Source: an uncultured Bacilli bacterium (GTDB taxonomy: Bacteria; Bacillota_I; Bacilli_A; RF39; UBA660). From it: a DNA stretch of 64,000 nt. Of the stretch, positions 2,274-58,794 are shown in pieces. The notes beneath the pieces are model-generated. The model was not told where the DNA came from. It did not search any database and worked only from the letters and a program-made list of their open reading frames with translations. Within the stretch, counting starts at the first letter, position 1. Every line of letters begins with the position of its first letter. Location of the stretch: positions 121,352-185,351 of the forward strand of contig CAKPHU010000001.1 in the NCBI GenBank assembly GCA_934162125.1, in the 5' to 3' direction. Position numbers and translations under genes: made by a program.

Positions 2274-4853
2274 TTATTTTAGAAAATCATCAATTGTCAT
2301 TAATCTATCGTCTATTTCTTTTAGAGAAATACGTTCTTTTTTAGGAAGAGGTTCTTCTTTTTTCTCTTCTTTTATTTCTTCGACTTCCACTTCTACTGGT
2401 TCAAGTAGTTCAACTTGTTCCTTAGTTCCTTTTTCTAAGTTAGCAACTAGGAAGGCGTCAGTTAATTGATGTTTAGTTAATTCTTTACCAGTTGAGTAAC
2501 GATCACTAATTGGCAATTCACTGGCTTTAATGAAGTTGATGTCAGCATTCTTGATACCTAGTTCAGAACGAGATCCAACGATAAATGTTTTTAATATTTT
2601 ATATGGATTAGTTTTAACTTCACGAATTATTTGAAGTCCACGACGAGTACGATTTGAGATTTCTAATTCATTTAAACGAATTCTCTTACCAGTACCTTTA
2701 GTAGTTAGAATAGCAACAAACTCATCTTGAGTTGGATCAAAGCAATTAGTAGATATTAGATGATCATCTTTTAATTTAATAGCTTTAACACCAGAAGCTT
2801 TAACACCTACTAGTGGAACATCGCTGGTTTTAAAACATAGACCATAGCCTGAATCTGTTGCTAAGAAAAGCGTATTTGCAGTTTCGCGGAAGACAGAAAT
2901 TACTTCGTCATCTTCTTTTAATTTCATACAGCTTGTAGCTTTAGAATATCTTTGAAGTTTAAACTCTTGAAGTTTAGAACGTTTAATCATACCATCTTTT
3001 GTAGCAATAACGACATTGGCATTAGTACTAAAGTCATAGGCTGGAATTGAAGCAATGATACTTTCATCAGCACTCATTTCAATTAGGTTACTGACATGTT
3101 TTGGCATGTCTTTCCATTTAAGATCTGGAATGATATGAACTGGAATATGAAGATAATTTCCTTTAGTTGTGAATAATAACAAAGTGTCTGTGGTATTCAT
3201 AACATATAGTCCTAAAACATAATCATTTTCTTTGATTGTTAAATCATTTTCATTTGATGATGTATAACTTCTTAGAGAAGTACGTTTTAAGTAACCATCT
3301 TTTGTAACAACTACAACTACTTCTTCTTTTGGAATCATTAGTGAAGTGTCAATCTTAATTTCAGTTATTTCATCTTTTATTTCAGTTATACGTGGTGTCT
3401 TATATTCATCACGAACGTCACGTAAGTCTTTCTTCATAACATTTCTTAGAGCGTCTTCACTAGCTAGGATAGTAGATAAGCCATTAATTATTTTTTCTAG
3501 GTTAGCCATTTCAGCTTCTAGAGCAACAACGTCTGTATTAGTTAAACGATATAGCTGTAAAGTAACGATAGCTTCAGCTTGTTCTGGTGAGAATTCAAAT
3601 TCTTTAACTAAATTGTCTTTGGCATCGGCTTTATTCTTTGAGGCTCTAATTACTTTTATTACTTCATCTAGAATAGATAAGCACTTAATTAAACCTTCAA
3701 CAATATGGTATCTAGCTTTAGCATGAGCTAAATCAAACTCTGTACGACGTCTAACAACTTCTTTTTGATGGTTAATAAAAGCATCAAGTGCTCCTTCTAA
3801 TCCTAGAAGTTTTGGTCTTCTATTAACGATAGAAACCATATTGAAATTGTAACTGATTTGCATATCAGTGTTTTTTAGTAAGTAATTGACAATTAAATCT
3901 TTATTAGCAGATTTTTTAATATCAATGACAATTCTAACATCAGCAGCTGATTCATCACGTACTTCAAGAATGCCATCTACTTTTTTATCAATACGAATGT
4001 CATCTATTTTTTTAACTAGTTGAGATTTATTTGTTTCAAAAGGAATCTCAGTAATGACTAATGAACATTTTGTTTTATCTTCTTCAAAAGTATATTTACT
4101 ACGAATATTTATCTTGCCACGACCAGTTTTATATGCTTCTTTAATACCTTCAATTCCTTCAACAATGGCTCCAGTTGGGAAGTCTGGTCCTTTGACAATA
4201 GCTATTAGAGAATCTAGAGTACAGTTAGGATGATCAATTCGATGAATTGTGGCATCAATTACTTCAGTTAAATTATGTGGTGGAATATTAGTAGCATATC
4301 CAGCGGAAATACCTTGAGCACCATAAACTAGAAGAGCTGGGAAACGAGCTGGTAAGACAGTTGGCTCTACTGTGGTGTCATCAAAGTTAGGAGCAAATTC
4401 AATAGTGTCTTTATCGATATCACGAAGCATTTCATTACTAATTTTAGAAAGACGAGCTTCAGTGTAACGATAGGCAGCTGGAGAGTCTCCATCGATAGAA
4501 CCGTTATTACCATGCATATCAATATATGGTAGACGAGTTTTCCAAGGTTGACTCATACGAACCATAGCATCATAGATTGAACTATCACCATGTGGATGGT
4601 AATTTCCGATAACGTCTCCTACTGTTTTGGCACTCTTACGATAACCTTTATCATAAGTGTTTTTTTCTTTGTACATAGAGTATAGGATACGTCTTTGAAC
4701 TGGCTTTAGACCATCTCTTGCATCGGGAATAGCACGATCTTGGATGATATACTTAGAATAACTTCCAAATCTTTCACCCATGATGTCTTCTAGGGTATAA
4801 TCAAATATTTTTTCGATTATTTCTTTTGTCTCTGAATTATCTTTTTTTGGCAT
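2274..4853 (-). CDS. parC: DNA topoisomerase IV subunit A (type IIA topoisomerase A subunit, ParC-type)
   Basis: 859 aa with a GyrA/ParC N-terminal breakage-reunion domain (RDGLKPVQRRILY, catalytic Tyr region AAYRYTEARL). The C-terminal region lacks a GyrA box (QRRGGKG) and resembles ParC (VVVTKDGYLKRTSLRSY, FSDRYSTG). It is paired with a B subunit rather than sitting at dnaA-dnaN-gyrB. Confidence 0.75.
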   Translation of the reverse strand: MPKKDNSETKEIIEKIFDYTLEDIMGERFGSYSKYIIQDRAIPDARDGLKPVQRRILYSMYKEKNTYDKGYRKSAKTVGDVIGNYHPHGDSSIYDAMVRMSQPWKTRLPYIDMHGNNGSIDGDSPAAYRYTEARLSKISNEMLRDIDKDTIEFAPNFDDTTVEPTVLPARFPALLVYGAQGISAGYATNIPPHNLTEVIDATIHRIDHPNCTLDSLIAIVKGPDFPTGAIVEGIEGIKEAYKTGRGKINIRSKYTFEEDKTKCSLVITEIPFETNKSQLVKKIDDIRIDKKVDGILEVRDESAADVRIVIDIKKSANKDLIVNYLLKNTDMQISYNFNMVSIVNRRPKLLGLEGALDAFINHQKEVVRRRTEFDLAHAKARYHIVEGLIKCLSILDEVIKVIRASKNKADAKDNLVKEFEFSPEQAEAIVTLQLYRLTNTDVVALEAEMANLEKIINGLSTILASEDALRNVMKKDLRDVRDEYKTPRITEIKDEITEIKIDTSLMIPKEEVVVVVTKDGYLKRTSLRSYTSSNENDLTIKENDYVLGLYVMNTTDTLLLFTTKGNYLHIPVHIIPDLKWKDMPKHVSNLIEMSADESIIASIPAYDFSTNANVVIATKDGMIKRSKLQEFKLQRYSKATSCMKLKEDDEVISVFRETANTLFLATDSGYGLCFKTSDVPLVGVKASGVKAIKLKDDHLISTNCFDPTQDEFVAILTTKGTGKRIRLNELEISNRTRRGLQIIREVKTNPYKILKTFIVGSRSELGIKNADINFIKASELPISDRYSTGKELTKHQLTDAFLVANLEKGTKEQVELLEPVEVEVEEIKEEKKEEPLPKKERISLKEIDDRLMTIDDFLK

Positions 4854-4869
4854 ATTTTCACCTATTTCT

Positions 4870-6774
4870 TTATTTTATCTTATAATCATCCTCTAGAGAG
4901 AATTCAACATTTTCATCAATCCATTCTTTACGTGGAGTAACATCGTCTCCCATAAGAACAGATACTCTTTTTTCAGCAAGTTGAGCATCTTCAATATTAA
5001 CACGAATTAAAGTTCTGCTTCCTGGTTTCATAGTTGTTTCACATAATTGATCGGCGTTCATTTCACCAAGACCTTTATATCTTTGAATTTCACATTTTTT
5101 GCCTTTACTTTTAGCTTGCATTTCCTCAATGGTATAAGCGTATTCAATGTCTTTACCACTTTGAATTTTAAATAAGGGAGGTAGAGCAACAAATAGACGA
5201 CCATCTTCTATTAAAGGTTTCATATAGCGATAGAAGAATGTTAAAAGTAGGCATTGAATGTGACCTCCATCTTCATCGGCATCGCTCATGATTATTACTT
5301 TAGAATATTCACAATCTTTAATATCGAAATTAGAACCATAACCTGCTCCAATAGTATAAATCATAGTATTTATTTCTTCATTACGAAGGATTTCGTCTTC
5401 TTTAGTTTTCTCAGTATTTAAAACTTTACCACGAAGAGGAAGGATGGCTTGGTAACGGCGGTCACGGCCTTGTTTTGCAGAACCACCAGCTGAATCTCCT
5501 TCGACTAAGAATAATTCTTTTTTAGTCTTGTCTTTGCTTTGAGCTGGGGCAAGTTTACCAGATAGAGAACGTTCTTTACTATTTTTCTTAGTTCCTTTAC
5601 GAGCTTCTTCACGAGCTTTTCTAGCAGCTTCACGAGCTATTTTACTACGAAGACTCTTGTTAATTATTTCTGTAGCAATTGTTTTATTTTCTTCTAGGAA
5701 AATTCTAATTTGTTCACTAACGATATTTTCAACGGCTGTTTTAGCTTGAGGAGTACCTAATTTTCCTTTTGTTTGTCCTTCAAATTGAAGAATGCCTTCA
5801 GGAATTTTTAAACTGATGATAGCAGTTAGACCTTCTCTTACATCGCTACCTTCTAGAGCCTTATCTTTTCCTTTAATAAAGCCATTGTTTTTAGCATAAT
5901 CATTAAAGACTTTGGTTAAAGCTGATTTGAAACCAACTTCATGAGAACCACCATCAATGGTTTTAACATTATTTACGAAACTAACAATTTCTTCATTGTA
6001 AGAGTCTGTGTATTGCATAGCAATTTCAACATCTATTTTTTCTTTAGTACCAGAAAAGTAAAGAACTTTATGAAGGGCATTTTTTCCTTTATTTAATTCT
6101 TCAACAAATTCTTCAATTCCACGTTCATAATGGAATTTTGCACTACGTTCATCTTCTTCATCAATTACTTCGATAGTAATACCTTTAAGAAGGAAAGCAG
6201 ATTCTTCCATTCTTTCACAGATTGTTGTATACGAAAAGTTAGTAGTAGTAAAAATTTCTGGATCAGGCAAGAATCTAACTGTTGTTCCTGTTTTATTAGT
6301 AGTTCCAATTTCTTTTAGAGGAACGGCAACATGGCCACCATTTTCAAAACGAATATAATACTCTTTTTTATCTCTTTTAATATTTACTTCCATCCATTTT
6401 GATAAAGCATTTACGACACTACTACCTACACCATGTAGTCCTCCTGATACTTTGTAGCCTTCACTTTCAAATTTACCTCCAGCATGTAATACTGTATAAA
6501 TAACTTCAGGAGTTGATTTACCAGAAGCATGCATTCCAGTTGGAAGTCCACGTCCATGATCTTCTACACTGACTGATTTATCTTTATGAATGACAATTTT
6601 TATATAGTCACCAAAACCATTAATTGCTTCATCGATAGAGTTGTCGACAATTTCCCAAACTAAGTGGTGTAATCCTCTTTTATCTGTTGATCCAATATAC
6701 ATACCTGGTCTTTTACGAACTGCGTCTAGACCTTCAAGGATCTTAATTGATGACTCATCATATTTTAATGCCAT
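4870..6774 (-). CDS. parE: DNA topoisomerase IV subunit B (GyrB/ParE family ATPase subunit)
   Basis: GHKL ATPase and TOPRIM motifs (ILEGLDAVRKRPGMYIG, LFLVEGDSAGGSAKQGRDR). I chose the start at the second Met (MALKYDE), which is preceded by GGAGTGA. The first in-frame Met of the ORF track lacks an RBS. Confidence 0.75.
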   Translation of the reverse strand: MALKYDESSIKILEGLDAVRKRPGMYIGSTDKRGLHHLVWEIVDNSIDEAINGFGDYIKIVIHKDKSVSVEDHGRGLPTGMHASGKSTPEVIYTVLHAGGKFESEGYKVSGGLHGVGSSVVNALSKWMEVNIKRDKKEYYIRFENGGHVAVPLKEIGTTNKTGTTVRFLPDPEIFTTTNFSYTTICERMEESAFLLKGITIEVIDEEDERSAKFHYERGIEEFVEELNKGKNALHKVLYFSGTKEKIDVEIAMQYTDSYNEEIVSFVNNVKTIDGGSHEVGFKSALTKVFNDYAKNNGFIKGKDKALEGSDVREGLTAIISLKIPEGILQFEGQTKGKLGTPQAKTAVENIVSEQIRIFLEENKTIATEIINKSLRSKIAREAARKAREEARKGTKKNSKERSLSGKLAPAQSKDKTKKELFLVEGDSAGGSAKQGRDRRYQAILPLRGKVLNTEKTKEDEILRNEEINTMIYTIGAGYGSNFDIKDCEYSKVIIMSDADEDGGHIQCLLLTFFYRYMKPLIEDGRLFVALPPLFKIQSGKDIEYAYTIEEMQAKSKGKKCEIQRYKGLGEMNADQLCETTMKPGSRTLIRVNIEDAQLAEKRVSVLMGDDVTPRKEWIDENVEFSLEDDYKIK

Positions 6775-7266: not shown

Positions 7267-9456
7267 CTATTTTATACCTGTTTCTAAAAATTCACGAATT
7301 GTTGTTCTTCTAATATCAGTCTTAGTATTATTTACAGCTAAGTTTAAAGCATTAGCTTCACCAATTAGATAAAGTTTTCTTTTAGCTCTAGTTATACCAG
7401 TATATATTAGTTTACGATATAGCATCTTATTAAAGTTATGAACTAGAGGTATAACAACAACTTCAAATTCACTACCTTGAGATTTATGAATAGAAATAGC
7501 ATAAGCAAGGCGGAAGTTATTAAAGTTAGAAGGTGTATATTTAACAACGTTGCCATCAAAATCAATGATGATTTCTTTCTTTGGTGAAGTCTTAATTTCT
7601 TTAATGATCCCAATATCACCATTATAAACATTTTCATCTGGCATATTTGTCAATTGAATTACTTTGTCTTCTTCCCTATAAATAAATTCACCTGCTATTA
7701 GTTCTTTTTTATTTTTTGATGGTGGATTAAATTTTCTTTGAAGAGCATTATTTATCTCATCAATTCCAGCAATTGTTTTATACATTGGGCATAATATTTG
7801 GAAATCTTTATAAGAGAGATCTCGATAAGTTTCAGCTATTTCAATAATGTTTGGAATGACATTTGAAACATCGCAATTTATGAATGTTAAGTCATCTCCA
7901 ATATTAAAGTTATCTTTATTAACTTCACCTCTTCTAATATCATAAGCAAGAGATAAAATGTGAGAATCTTTTCCTTGACGATATAGTTCAGTTAGCTCTA
8001 CTTTTTCTAGAGTATTACTCATAATAATGTCATAGAGAACTTGTCCTGGACCTACTGATGGCAATTGATGAAAGTCCCCTACTATAACTATTTTACAATT
8101 AGCAGAAATGCCTTTTAAAAGATTAGCCATTAGATAAGTATCAACCATACTAGCTTCATCTAGTATTACGAACTCAGCTTTACTTTTATTGTATTCATTG
8201 ACTTGGAAACGATTAGTTTCTTTTTGCCATTTTAGGAAACGATGGATAGTTGAAGCCCGAACTTGAGAAGTTTCACTCATTCTTTTGGCAGCACGACCAG
8301 TTGGGGCAAGAAGAACTACTTTTTCATTAAGAGACTCATAACTTAATTTATTCATAATACGATATAGTTCTACTATGCCACGCATGATAGTGGTTTTACC
8401 TGTTCCTGGTCCACCTGTAATAATTAGGAATTTACGTAAATAACTGTTTTTGATAGCTAGACGTTGTTCAGTATTATATTTAATGCCATAATGTTCTTCA
8501 AGTTCAGCAATACGTTCTTCAAGGCACTTTTCTTTTAATGGTTCTTCGTGGTTTAACATGCGGAAACGTTTAACGATTAAGGTTTCAGCTTCATACATTT
8601 CTTTTAGATAGTAGCAGTCTTCTTTAATGACAATTTCTAGGTTTTGATCTAGAGTCTGTAAAGCAGAATCTAATTTTTCAGAGGAGATGTTTACGCCTAA
8701 GACACGTGGTAAGTAGAAAGCTAGTTCATCTTTAAAATAATAACTATGACCATAAGTATTACTGATTTCATTCATAATATAAATTAGAGCTGCCCTAATA
8801 CGAATATCAGCATCTTTTGAAACATTGTTTCTTAAGGCTATATAGTCTACTTTTTTAAATGTTATATTGTAGATATCTCTAACTACTTGATAGATATCTT
8901 CAGTAATAATATCCTTAGTTTTATTTTTGTAGAAATTATATATTAACATGGCGTCTTTAGTAGAAAAGCCTAATTCAGTTAGATAAATAATTATCTCATA
9001 ACTTGCTTCATACTCAGCTAAAGTATCATGAAGAGTGTTGGCATTCTTCTTTGTTACACCAGGGATTAAGATAAGATTGGCAGGATTATCAAGAATTATT
9101 TTTAAGGTGTCTTTTCCTAATACATCAACAATGGCTTTAGCTTTTTTCTCACCTATTCCTTTAAATAAACCTGAAGTTAAAAATTCAATTATACCATCTC
9201 GTTCTTCTGGACGACATCTTTCATAACTTTCAACTTGAAATTGTTCACCATACTTTTCATGATTTATGAGATTACCATAAAAAAGATATGTATCCATATC
9301 ATTAAGTTCATGAAAGTAACCAGTAAAAGTAATAACTCGATCAATATAGGCTTCTAAGTCTTTGGTATCAGTATCAACTACTTTAAATAAACCAATGTGA
9401 TAGCCTGTTGGAGACTCATATATACTTTTACGATAATTTCCCTTAATGTATGTCAT
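7267..9456 (-). CDS. recD2: ATP-dependent RecD-like DNA helicase (RecD2/YrrC family)
   Basis: 729 aa with an N-terminal HhH region, Walker A (GGPGTGKTT) and SF1 helicase motifs (VILDEASMVD, QLPSVGPG) and a C-terminal RecD-like domain. Confidence 0.85.
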   Translation of the reverse strand: MTYIKGNYRKSIYESPTGYHIGLFKVVDTDTKDLEAYIDRVITFTGYFHELNDMDTYLFYGNLINHEKYGEQFQVESYERCRPEERDGIIEFLTSGLFKGIGEKKAKAIVDVLGKDTLKIILDNPANLILIPGVTKKNANTLHDTLAEYEASYEIIIYLTELGFSTKDAMLIYNFYKNKTKDIITEDIYQVVRDIYNITFKKVDYIALRNNVSKDADIRIRAALIYIMNEISNTYGHSYYFKDELAFYLPRVLGVNISSEKLDSALQTLDQNLEIVIKEDCYYLKEMYEAETLIVKRFRMLNHEEPLKEKCLEERIAELEEHYGIKYNTEQRLAIKNSYLRKFLIITGGPGTGKTTIMRGIVELYRIMNKLSYESLNEKVVLLAPTGRAAKRMSETSQVRASTIHRFLKWQKETNRFQVNEYNKSKAEFVILDEASMVDTYLMANLLKGISANCKIVIVGDFHQLPSVGPGQVLYDIIMSNTLEKVELTELYRQGKDSHILSLAYDIRRGEVNKDNFNIGDDLTFINCDVSNVIPNIIEIAETYRDLSYKDFQILCPMYKTIAGIDEINNALQRKFNPPSKNKKELIAGEFIYREEDKVIQLTNMPDENVYNGDIGIIKEIKTSPKKEIIIDFDGNVVKYTPSNFNNFRLAYAISIHKSQGSEFEVVVIPLVHNFNKMLYRKLIYTGITRAKRKLYLIGEANALNLAVNNTKTDIRRTTIREFLETGIK

Positions 9457-9473
9457 ATTTTTTTACTCCTTTA

Positions 9474-10745
9474 TTATTCTCCTATGCAGTATGGATAATC
9501 TATTTCTTTAATTGTTACATTTACAAAAGTATTATGTTCTAATTCTTTAGCAATTTTAACATGTAGGTAGTTACTTGTATGACCATAACTATAACCATCT
9601 TTTGTCTCTTCAATTAGAACTTCTTCTGTTTTATTTAAGAACTTTTTAGCATAAGCTATTTCTAAATCTTTAGATACTAATAATAATTCTCTAGCACGTC
9701 TTTTCTTTTCAGCTTGATCAATGTGATTAGGCATTTCCATAGCTTTGGTACCTTTTCTTTCACTGTATGGGAAGACATGTATTTTAGCAAATTCTAGTTT
9801 CTTACAAGTTTCAATGGTTGTTTGGAAGAGTTCTTCTGTTTCTCCTGGAAAACCTACAATTACATCTGTTGTAATACTAATATTTGGTCTAATCTTGCGA
9901 ATTTCTGCTATTTTAGCGAAGAAATAAGCTAAATTATATTTACGATTCATAGCTTTTAAGATCTCATCACTACCAGCTTGTAGAGGTATATGAAGATGAT
10001 CAACAATGATAGAACTTTCTCTTAAAATATCTAAAACCTCTTCATTTAATTCAGTTGTCTCAATAGAAGAAATACGTAATCTTTTAAGGCCTGGTATCTT
10101 GATAATGTCTTTTAAAAGAGAAGCGAATGATGTTTCTAAGTCGGCACCATAATTTCCTGTATGAATACCAGTTAAGACAACTTCTTGATAACCATTATTT
10201 ACGAGTGAAGTTATTTCAGATATTACTTTATCAGGATCTTTACTACGACATTTACCACGAACGTAAGGAATGATGCAATAACTACAGAAGTTCTCACAAC
10301 CATCTTGGATTTTTACAAAAGCTCTAGTACGGCCTGGGAAATTAGTTATATACATATCTTCAAATTCATCTTTTGGATCATCATATAACTTAACAATCGT
10401 TTCTTTCTTTTGAAAATATTCATCTAATAGTTCTACTATTTTAGATTTGTCTTTATTTCCTAAAACAATATCTAGGCCTTCTATTTCATAATCTTTGTTG
10501 GCTTCAATAAAACAACCCATTGCGACAACACATGCATGAGGATTCTTCTTTATGGCACTACGAATCATCTTTTTAGACTTAATATCACTTGTATTAGTAA
10601 CGGTACAAGTATTTATAATATAGACGTCACAAATATCATCAAATGACTTTATTTCGTAGCCATTATTCTTTAATAAATTCATAACGTATTCACTCTCATA
10701 CGTATTTACTTTACATCCTAATGTTAATATTCCAACTGTTCGCAT
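9474..10745 (-). CDS. mtaB: tRNA threonylcarbamoyladenosine methylthiotransferase MtaB-like enzyme (radical SAM MiaB/RimO family)
   Basis: 423 aa with an MTTase N-domain (GCKVNTYESE), a radical-SAM CxxxCxxC (CENFCSYC) and a C-terminal TRAM-like region. The size fits MtaB/YqeV. Confidence 0.75.
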   Translation of the reverse strand: MRTVGILTLGCKVNTYESEYVMNLLKNNGYEIKSFDDICDVYIINTCTVTNTSDIKSKKMIRSAIKKNPHACVVAMGCFIEANKDYEIEGLDIVLGNKDKSKIVELLDEYFQKKETIVKLYDDPKDEFEDMYITNFPGRTRAFVKIQDGCENFCSYCIIPYVRGKCRSKDPDKVISEITSLVNNGYQEVVLTGIHTGNYGADLETSFASLLKDIIKIPGLKRLRISSIETTELNEEVLDILRESSIIVDHLHIPLQAGSDEILKAMNRKYNLAYFFAKIAEIRKIRPNISITTDVIVGFPGETEELFQTTIETCKKLEFAKIHVFPYSERKGTKAMEMPNHIDQAEKKRRARELLLVSKDLEIAYAKKFLNKTEEVLIEETKDGYSYGHTSNYLHVKIAKELEHNTFVNVTIKEIDYPYCIGE

Positions 10746-57554: not shown

Positions 57555-58172
57555 TTAATATTCTTCTTTATTTACTAAATATGAAACTACTACTAGTTGT
57601 CTATCATTAGTATCTTTCTTACAAGTTATTAGTGTTAACGTATTCTGATTTAAGTCTCTACTTATTTCAACAGAGCCATCTTTTTTAACATCATATATCT
57701 CATCAATGTGGTAAGTATACTTTATTCCTTCATGATAGATATAGACAATGTCATTTAGTTCTAGACGATGAAATTGATTGAAGTAAGAAATACGAGCAGT
57801 ACCATTATGGGCTGCTAAAACGACATTTCCATTTACTTCTTGAGGTAGAGAACTTTCTTTTAGAATAGCAACATTTTTCTCAATTGTATTTTGATCTGAT
57901 TCTAATGAATAAACTCCTCTTTTTAAACCAATTTTAGGTATTTCTAAGATGAGTAGAAACTCCTCTTCCTTATTGTCAGAAGGTGGAGTTTCAATATTTT
58001 CCTTTTCTTCCTCTTTAACTTTAGAAGTATTTTCTAAATAATCATTTACCTTATTATTGTCTTCTGTTGTATGCTCTTTTTCAAGAAAAATAGGAACAAC
58101 TCCAATCATTATTCCTATTATCACAACAATTATTCCAAATGCTAGAGTTTTAGCTTTGCTTTTTTCTTGCAC
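57555..58172 (-). CDS. Sortase-family transpeptidase
   Basis: N-terminal membrane anchor, catalytic His region (LAAHNG) and the TLxTC Cys motif (LTLITCKKD). GTG start overlapping the upstream gene's end. Confidence 0.7.
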   Translation of the reverse strand: MQEKSKAKTLAFGIIVVIIGIMIGVVPIFLEKEHTTEDNNKVNDYLENTSKVKEEEKENIETPPSDNKEEEFLLILEIPKIGLKRGVYSLESDQNTIEKNVAILKESSLPQEVNGNVVLAAHNGTARISYFNQFHRLELNDIVYIYHEGIKYTYHIDEIYDVKKDGSVEISRDLNQNTLTLITCKKDTNDRQLVVVSYLVNKEEY

Positions 58173-58794
58173 TTATAATTATTCCTAATCCTATTAAAAC
58201 TATGATAATTGAAAATACAATTGTATAAGGAAAACTATTACTCATAGTATCTGGAGTTTCAACAATTTCAACAGGTGGTTTGCCATTATCATATTGAGCA
58301 TAGAATGACCAATCAATATATGATGATTCATTAAACTCTGTATTACCATAACTTTCAGATAATTTTGTTTCTACAACCATTTTAGAAGTCTTTGATGGTT
58401 CAAAATCTCCTAGTAGAATTGCTTGTTGAAGATCAATTCCTTGATTAGTATAGTCAAGGCCAGTAGCCTTTCCTTCATAGATAACTTTATCATCTAATTT
58501 AATTTTCATTATGATATTTTCTAGCAACTCATCTGCTTCAGCACTTTGACTTTTAGGTACAACTTTAAAAAATAAAGTATATTTTATTTTTGTTCCATTC
58601 TCAATAGTTAATTCATCTGTATAACTACTACCAGGAACCATATCCATATGCTTCATGAATACATCTTCATCTATTAATTTGCTTTCATAATATAGACGAT
58701 CATTTTCTTCTGTAAAATATAATCTGTTTTCTTTAGCTTGTACAGATATAGTACTAAGTACAAAAACAAATATTAATAATATGATTTTTTTCAT
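58150..58794 (-). CDS. Secreted protein with a cell-wall-sorting-signal-like C-terminus (motif region VETPDTMSNSFPY, hydrophobic helix, ARKKQS tail) but no canonical LPXTG; a candidate sortase substrate
   Basis: Sec signal peptide (ISVQA|KE) and a tripartite C-terminus, read directly. Immediately upstream of and overlapping the sortase gene. Confidence 0.5.
   Translation of the reverse strand: MKKIILLIFVFVLSTISVQAKENRLYFTEENDRLYYESKLIDEDVFMKHMDMVPGSSYTDELTIENGTKIKYTLFFKVVPKSQSAEADELLENIIMKIKLDDKVIYEGKATGLDYTNQGIDLQQAILLGDFEPSKTSKMVVETKLSESYGNTEFNESSYIDWSFYAQYDNGKPPVEIVETPDTMSNSFPYTIVFSIIIVLIGLGIIISARKKQS

Follow-up and report, generated by a model that had tools for sequence, protein, structure and literature searches.

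How is a secreted protein fixed to the cell surface when its C-terminus has the build of a signal for cell wall sorting (CWSS) and carries none of the familiar sortase pentapeptides? The question is raised by two overlapping genes in a 64-kb stretch (the window) of contig CAKPHU010000001.1 from an uncultured Bacilli bacterium, one encoding a 214-residue secreted protein that we call the anchor and the other a 205-residue sortase, the only sortase in the window. The two genes close a co-directional operon with the order VWA, B-repeat, BsaB-like, SipW, BsaA, anchor and sortase. A first-pass annotation, made from the letters of the DNA, had described the anchor C-terminus as tripartite, had found no LPXTG, NPQTN or (S/P)PXTG in it, and had proposed that the pair could define an uncharacterized sortase recognition motif, ETPDT or TPDTM. 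Our comparative analysis points to TPDTM as a Gly-to-Met variant of a sortase pentapeptide that is found throughout the anchor family, paired with a private sortase, and suggests that the pair fastens the base of a BsaA-type fiber to the cell wall.

The anchor C-terminus reads GKPPVEIVE-TPDTM-SNSFP-YTIVFSIIIVLIGLGIIIS-ARKKQS and then stops; the peptide spanning the motif is VEIVETPDTMSNS. Its N-terminus, MKKIILLIFVFVLSTISVQA/KEN (the slash marks the predicted cleavage position), is a standard Sec signal peptide that is helical at residues 2–14 in the AlphaFold model, and in a set of 65 diverse homologues Ala20 shows conservation of at least 90%. Of the properties expected of a CWSS, the anchor has the Sec signal, a pentapeptide whose second residue is Pro and whose fourth is Thr, a five-residue spacer, the helix and the basic tail; what it lacks is Leu (or Asn, Ser or Pro) as the first residue of the pentapeptide and Gly as the fifth. 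The codons of the basic tail ARKKQS double, in another frame, as those of the sortase N-terminus, with the sortase start lying inside them. The reported 23-nt overlap is plain to see in the two genes, LPXTG, NPQTN and [SP]PxTG are indeed absent from all 214 residues, and the tripartite C-terminus, visible in the open reading frame (ORF), is a genuine sorting signal as judged by homology. No other ORF in the window has a C-terminus of this kind, with a hydrophobic segment and then a basic tail. At E < 0.01 the anchor was matched neither by the curated models for such signals (TIGR01167, TIGR03063 and their kin) nor by any other NCBIfam or Pfam model, and members of its family are annotated as ‘hypothetical protein’ in their source records.

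A profile search over 1.84 billion representatives recovered 357 relatives of the anchor, and motif counts were taken from the 150 that were listed. The columns occupied by TPDTM mostly read xPxTG in these relatives, often followed by Asp (NPDTGD, PPKTGD, APSTG, VPITG, IPNTG). An xPxT-x motif is present in about 100 of the 150; position 5 is Gly in 65 of these, and S, Y, K, V, D, F, N, H, M, L, A, W or Q in the others. As the columns align with xPxTG(D), the register is TPDTM and not ETPDT, which retires one of the two candidates put forward earlier, and TPDTM is a Gly-to-Met variant of the family-wide sortase pentapeptide. Pro181 is one of ten anchor positions at least 90% conserved in the 65 diverse homologues, and both Pro181 and Thr183 are invariant in a 14-sequence alignment that extends down to 45% identity. 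The 120 closest homologues (67–100% identity) come from rumen and gut metagenomes; about 114 of them carry [STA]P[ND]TM[KR]NSFP in the upstream context PPVEII-x. Within this close clade Met184 is invariant and the spacer is kept as [KR]NSFP. One family member weakly matches the srtB_target model. Separately, a single Bacilli metagenome-assembled genome (MAG; CASPWD01) holds five paralogous anchor genes (L012, L016, L018, L019 and L020), all of the NPDTG type and only some within full BsaA operons.

The residue that follows Thr goes together with the presence of the sortase gene. ORFs were called in 93 loci and searched with iterated profiles, and loci entered the counts when the anchor gene was complete and either a sortase start could be seen or the DNA downstream ran to about 550 bp or more. 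An overlapping sortase gene accompanied Met in 17 of 17 loci, Asn in two of three (L036 and L103) and Leu in the single locus available (L094); it was present in none of the 31 loci with Gly and in none of the nine with S, F, H, R, D or A. Downstream of PxTG anchors, neither the iterated profiles run over the 93 loci nor inspection of the downstream ORFs by eye revealed a sortase-like ORF. In a neighbor-joining tree of the anchor N-terminal domains, sortase-less lineages are interleaved with the sortase-linked Met lineages (the interleaved lineages being VP[DN]TG, NPKTS, VPNTF, VPDTF and VPDTN), and the association between sortase and Met therefore reflects several transitions and not one, as read from a tree that is crude and from loci that are not independent. 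That Met occurs only alongside an overlapping sortase gene points to a private enzyme–substrate pair with a motif so far undescribed. The earlier proposal of an uncharacterized sortase motif thus gains from comparative genomics, in the contrast between Met loci and PxTG loci, in the failure of the sortase clade to reach the class models and in the pairing of its more distant members with one substrate apiece (both below); it needs amending in that the motif is a derived variant of the (S/P/N/V)PxTG type, not an unrelated sequence.

The sortase partner appears competent for catalysis and is difficult to classify. Gene callers on public contigs return the identical 205-residue protein, which has a confident sortase fold and scores above the curated cut-off of the generic models (PF04203/TIGR01076). 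Residues His122, Cys184 (within TLITC) and Arg191 align with the catalytic residues of Clostridium perfringens SrtD (4d70), the closest solved relative in sequence (E 1.7e-10). Every class-specific score lies below its cut-off: 79.8 bits against 160 for class C, 65.3 against 140 for SrtD, 47.5 against 165 for class D, 43.8 against 160 for class E and 18.4 against 158 for GN; the NCBIfam class A, B and F models gave no match. Seven clade relatives likewise fall below every NCBIfam class model (A–F and GN), and by these models the clade is placed outside classes A–F and GN. The catalytic Arg is kept in the window sortase and its closest relatives; most clade relatives carry Lys in its place ([RK]Q), and one (L099) carries Leu.

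These scores bear on whether the enzyme might be a class C-like ligase or polymerase, joining Thr183 to a lysine of the BsaA, BsaB-like, 692-residue or VWA protein and leaving wall attachment to another enzyme. A DPW-type lid and a C-terminal membrane helix are typical features of class C sortases; neither is visible in the sequence or the AlphaFold model of the window sortase. Its class C score is half the cut-off, and in structural comparison it lies just as near to structures of classes E, A and D. A homopolymer is ruled out by the presence of a sorting signal on only one protein of the operon, and the isopeptide bonds of BsaA are reported to be self-generated (PMC11580942). We regard a ligase of this kind as unlikely.

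Relatives of the sortase at 33–47% identity, looked up on their contigs, overlap the 3′ end of a substrate gene by 17–32 nt. The substrate is an anchor homologue in two cases, ending in SPDTL (L094) and VPNTN (L103). In the others it is an adhesin: thioester/SpaA-domain proteins carry VPSTN (L095, on a conjugative element) and VPNTH (L097), thioester-domain proteins carry VPDTV (L096, also on a conjugative element) and VPDTG (L099), SpaA-domain proteins carry VPKTD (L098) and VPDTA (L100), and a 671-residue adhesin carries VGKTG (L101). A membrane helix and a basic tail follow each of the eight PxT motifs. One further sortase (L102) follows the coupling protein of a type IV secretion system (T4SS) and has no adjacent substrate. 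The cognate signal of the clade can provisionally be written as hydrophobic-hydrophobic-(E)-[VST]-P-[DNKS]-T-x, with the position after Thr apparently free. As the enzymes of this clade are typically dedicated to one neighboring substrate, a lack of further motif-bearing proteins in the genome, which the first-pass annotation would have counted against its proposal, would say little about whether TPDTM is a sorting motif.

The clade also bears on the thought that the likeness to a sorting signal is fortuitous and the gene overlap devoid of functional meaning. A single P-x-T ahead of a membrane helix is admittedly a short pattern; against coincidence stand the conservation of the motif across the family and its homology to PxTG, together with an overlap arrangement that is kept across the clade with unrelated substrates. 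We consider coincidence highly improbable. More finely balanced is the proposal that the clade constitutes an undescribed sortase class outside A–F, in which each enzyme would be translationally coupled to a single substrate, Gly after Thr would not be needed, and both BsaA/TasA fibers and conjugative-element adhesins would be served; here our judgment is close to even, inclining slightly against. The contigs of L095, L096 and L102 show a conjugative-element context, with a TraG/VirD4-like coupling protein, ParA/ParB, a single-stranded DNA-binding protein and a T4SS pilin. It is possible that the sortase relatives (L095, L096 and L102, and also L097–L101) and the thioester- and SpaA-domain adhesins beside them form a system for anchoring mating adhesins by non-canonical motifs.

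One relative bears on how such a sortase coexists with others. On the L094 contig the gene of the dedicated sortase is followed 2 kb downstream, beyond spoVA genes, by that of a true class B enzyme (8681–9643; TIGR03064, 179 bits). This layout is consistent with two parallel sorting pathways per cell, and from the spoVA genes and the two sortases the L094 host is probably a spore-former that has both pathways.

Fusions of the anchor domain with one membrane helix and a sortase-like domain also occur (P0123, P0146, P0181, P0210 and L070 at 4001–5098). The PxT motif is absent from them, and the catalytic Cys and/or His is lost; from their sequences they look like permanently tethered pseudo-sortases. 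An origin as frameshift artefacts of the 23-nt overlap was considered and rejected, as the fusions have no motif, a single common membrane helix and degenerate catalytic residues.

Could the anchor be held in the membrane by its tail alone, as an uncleaved fiber base with a decaying PxT motif, while the sortase acts elsewhere or non-catalytically, for example as a chaperone? Such an arrangement would fit the absence of the canonical Gly from TPDTM, the motif-less pseudo-sortase fusions with their degenerate catalytic residues, and other family members that have a membrane helix and no motif (P0200, P0234, P0243 and others); moreover, BsaA fibers of C. perfringens are membrane-anchored (PMC11580942). 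Three observations argue the other way: i) a decaying motif would be expected to drift, yet the Met-containing motif and its spacer are nearly invariant in about 114 of the 120 closest homologues, at 67–78% identity overall, ii) Met is found exclusively where the sortase is present, and the window sortase keeps its His, Cys and Arg, and iii) the surroundings encode no alternative substrate, and pairing in the clade is one to one, with [VST]PxT-x proteins. Taken together, we think a purely tail-anchored base quite unlikely.

The nature of the anchored domain was examined by structure prediction. An AlphaFold model built on the 65-sequence alignment (predicted local distance difference test score, pLDDT, 88.5) shows a compact beta-sandwich that leads straight into the motif and the membrane helix, with no stalk. 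The best structural neighbors are donor-strand fibers, namely TasA (8aur), archaeal bundling pili (7ueg) and Sulfolobus threads (7pnb, the top Foldseek match), all at modest scores. The model thus gives modest support to a TasA-like fold, without placement in the BsaA family. Membership of that family was rejected: hhalign of the anchor family against local BsaA profiles reached 22% probability over 41 columns (common stretch PG...v.v.N.G), the family models TIGR04090 and TIGR04088 (BsaA/TasA family) did not match the anchor, and the anchor has an ordinary AxA signal peptide, not one of the SipW type.

A connection between fiber and anchor comes instead from domain fusions. Nine of ten long homologues of the anchor (430–670 residues) are genuine BsaA proteins (TIGR04090, 122–185 bits), most with a SipW-type signal peptide, and in the C-terminal half of these nine (P0132, P0198, P0212, P0219, P0237, P0241, P0259, P0266 and P0268) the anchor domain is followed by a PxTG(D) signal for sorting. 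The same fusion is encoded in loci L078–L083 (ORF at about 3152–4744). The union of BsaA, anchor domain and PxTG in one protein therefore links the fiber subunit to the anchor. These fusions may correspond to the ‘BsaB-like protein with LPXTG’ of most C. perfringens strains.

With the anatomy, motif homology, operon, sortase–Met co-occurrence, intact catalytic triad and unclassified sortase clade as observed, the reading that we favor, and think probable, is that the dedicated sortase cleaves after Thr183 and thereby fixes the base of a BsaA-type fiber to the wall. The anchor would be exported by Sec, its signal peptide cleaved after Ala20, and the protein retained in the membrane by its helix and basic tail. 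Cys184 of the co-translated sortase would attack the bond between Thr183 and Met184, and Thr183 would be transferred to a peptidoglycan precursor as the presumed acceptor. The nearly stalkless TasA-like beta-sandwich, now covalently held in the wall, would bind or nucleate the BsaA fiber. As for its origin, xPxTG(D) would have been the ancestral signal of the family, with a class B-type sortase from another part of the genome as its probable enzyme; recruitment of a private sortase in the lineage of the window, together with a Gly-to-Met change after Thr, would have produced a separate enzyme–substrate pair.

The operon is a SipW/BsaA (TasA-like) biofilm-fiber system known from C. perfringens (Table 1). 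The genes for SipW and BsaA lie directly upstream of the anchor gene, and the order from VWA through B-repeat, BsaB-like, SipW and BsaA to anchor is kept in more than 20 loci, which belong to MAGs of Erysipelotrichaceae, Bacilli and Clostridia and to Clostridium culturomicium. A local profile built from the BsaB-like protein converges on the BsaA family. A scan of the operon for promoters and terminators gave counts not above those in shuffled sequence. The C-terminus of the VWA protein (62700..62730) reads ...GSMASPYIVETGD and has no membrane segment; its IVET string echoes EIVETPDT of the anchor, probably by coincidence. Downstream of the operon are two adjacent genes for proteins with Tim44-like domains and C-terminal zinc ribbons, the first of which adds a Gly/Ser-rich region and a membrane segment, and after them an ABC transporter pair, an arrangement kept on contigs L001 and L002. 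A small ORF separates the sortase gene from the Tim44-like pair; public contigs have it annotated as a gene, and its product starts like a signal peptide and ends in an acidic tail rich in Ser.

Table 1 Features of the fiber operon and its surroundings in the 64-kb window
Feature	Position	Strand	Basis or remark
VWA-domain protein, BsaC-like, 1157 aa, first operon gene; 3′ part in window	62700..64000	minus	Full gene and VWA domain on public contig L001
692-aa secreted protein, InlB-type B-repeats and DUF11/CLIPPER	60559..62637	minus	Pfam; synteny
Second, more divergent BsaA/BsaB-like subunit, 201 aa	59952..60557	minus	TIGR04090 47.9 bits (<60); TIGR04088 18.4 bits (<19)
SipW-type signal peptidase I	59446..59961	minus	TIGR02228 108 bits; SipW model 2.9e-28
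BsaA-family fiber subunit, SipW-type signal peptide, presumed major subunit	58824..59477	minus	TIGR04090 116.8 bits (cut-off 60) and TIGR04088
Anchor gene, 214 aa	58150..58794	minus	Sec signal peptide, beta-sandwich, C-terminal sorting signal
Anchor Sec signal peptide, residues 1–20	58735..58794	minus	Standard AxA type
Anchor beta-sandwich domain, residues 21–179
Variant sortase recognition motif, T180-P181-D182-T183-M184	58243..58257	minus	Column alignment with xPxTG(D) of homologues
Spacer SNSFP, residues 185–189, then hydrophobic membrane segment Y190–S208	58171..58242	minus
Hydrophobic segment, residues 190–208 (19 residues)	58171..58227	minus	AlphaFold helix 191–213
Basic tail ARKKQS, stop-transfer element of sorting signal	58153..58170	minus
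Overlap of anchor and sortase genes, 23 nt	58150..58172
Sortase gene, 205 aa, N-terminal membrane helix and catalytic domain	57555..58172	minus	GTG start preceded by AGGA
Catalytic Arg191 codon of sortase	about 57600–57602
Small ORF, 63–66 aa	57275..57475	minus
Two adjacent Tim44-like genes, 297 aa and 181 aa	55810..57239	minus

For the question of how TasA/BsaA fibers are fastened to Gram-positive cells, the locus offers a clean and testable case, with an anchor and an overlapping sortase at the end of the operon. In the motifs found with the sortase clade, the leaving-group residue is freely variable (M, L, N, V, H, D, A and G). If TPDTM is truly cleaved after its Thr, the known repertoire of sortase recognition would be widened, and the clade might yield enzymes for ligation free of cross-reaction with those for LPXTG. 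If the clade is a new class, it would represent a naturally separate sorting pathway, operating beside a nearby class B sortase on the same contig, and a new ligation specificity; it would also have been recruited at least twice, for BsaA/TasA fibers of gut and rumen Erysipelotrichaceae/Bacilli and for thioester/SpaA adhesins of conjugative elements. Genome-wide predictions of surface proteins that use LPXTG-type models miss such proteins, as the failure of every curated model on the anchor illustrates. The literature searched held no description of Met, L, N, V, H, D or A after Thr as in this clade, nothing relevant on the motifs SPNTM, TPDTM, VPNTM, SPDTM, VPDTM and APNTM, and, for the thioester adhesins of conjugative elements, no account of these motifs or of the sortase clade.

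Among known systems, the closest in gene content is that of C. perfringens, in which sipW-bsaA-bsaB-bsaC (bsaC encoding the VWA protein) adjoins a sortase gene whose deletion in strain 13 was without effect (PMC7395162, PMC11580942); most strains have a BsaB-like gene with LPXTG, and the authors speculate that it anchors the fiber to peptidoglycan, with the adjacent sortase suspected of taking part (PMC11580942). The two systems share SipW, BsaA subunits, a VWA protein, a neighboring sortase and one small operon protein with a sorting signal. They differ in that the anchor here is a separate 214-residue protein without a match to the BsaA models, the operon adds the 692-residue B-repeat protein, the sortase gene is co-directional and overlapping, and the motif is TPDTM and not xPxTG. 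Closer on the enzyme side is C. perfringens SrtD, encoded in an operon with an LPQTGS anchor protein (PMC4498605), which has the same His/Cys/Arg triad and is likewise a small sortase beside a single cognate substrate.

In the motif itself, the nearest parallel is the (S/P)PXTG signal of Clostridioides difficile SrtB (PMC4155245, PMC5569036). The first four positions agree as [ST]PxT, with SPNTM and SPDTM in close relatives of the anchor, and the anchor family at large often shows PPKTGD, SPKTGD and NPKTGD, a motif that resembles the SrtB signal; in contrast, position 5 is Met here, and the window sortase has no class B match, where a true class B enzyme scores 179 bits. A residue other than Gly after Thr, with dedication to one or two substrates, is familiar from Staphylococcus aureus SrtB (NPQTN) and the class D SrtC of Bacillus anthracis (LPNTA) (PMC3208642); those enzymes belong to different classes, and their motifs keep Leu or Asn at position 1.

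As a fiber base, the anchor resembles parts of two further systems. Like TapA-SipW-TasA of Bacillus subtilis, the locus combines a SipW-dependent donor-strand fiber with a minor accessory protein that would link fiber and cell, whereas TapA has no sorting signal, the B. subtilis system has no sortase, and the anchor has no detectable homology to TapA (no family match). Like RrgC, the basal pilin of Streptococcus pneumoniae with its VPDTG motif (PMC5640630), it would be a terminal subunit of small size, bearing a motif of the VPxT type and holding a fiber to the wall, and VPDTG itself occurs in the anchor family (L010) and beside a sortase of the clade (L099). Such pili are the work of class C sortases, which polymerize them through Lys isopeptide bonds, whereas the fiber considered here is of the SipW/BsaA donor-strand type and the signal is on the anchor only. 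Relative to these known pairs, what is new is the Met after Thr, the unclassified sortase clade, the conserved overlap at the 3′ end of the substrate gene, and the BsaA/TasA-type fiber anchor as cargo.

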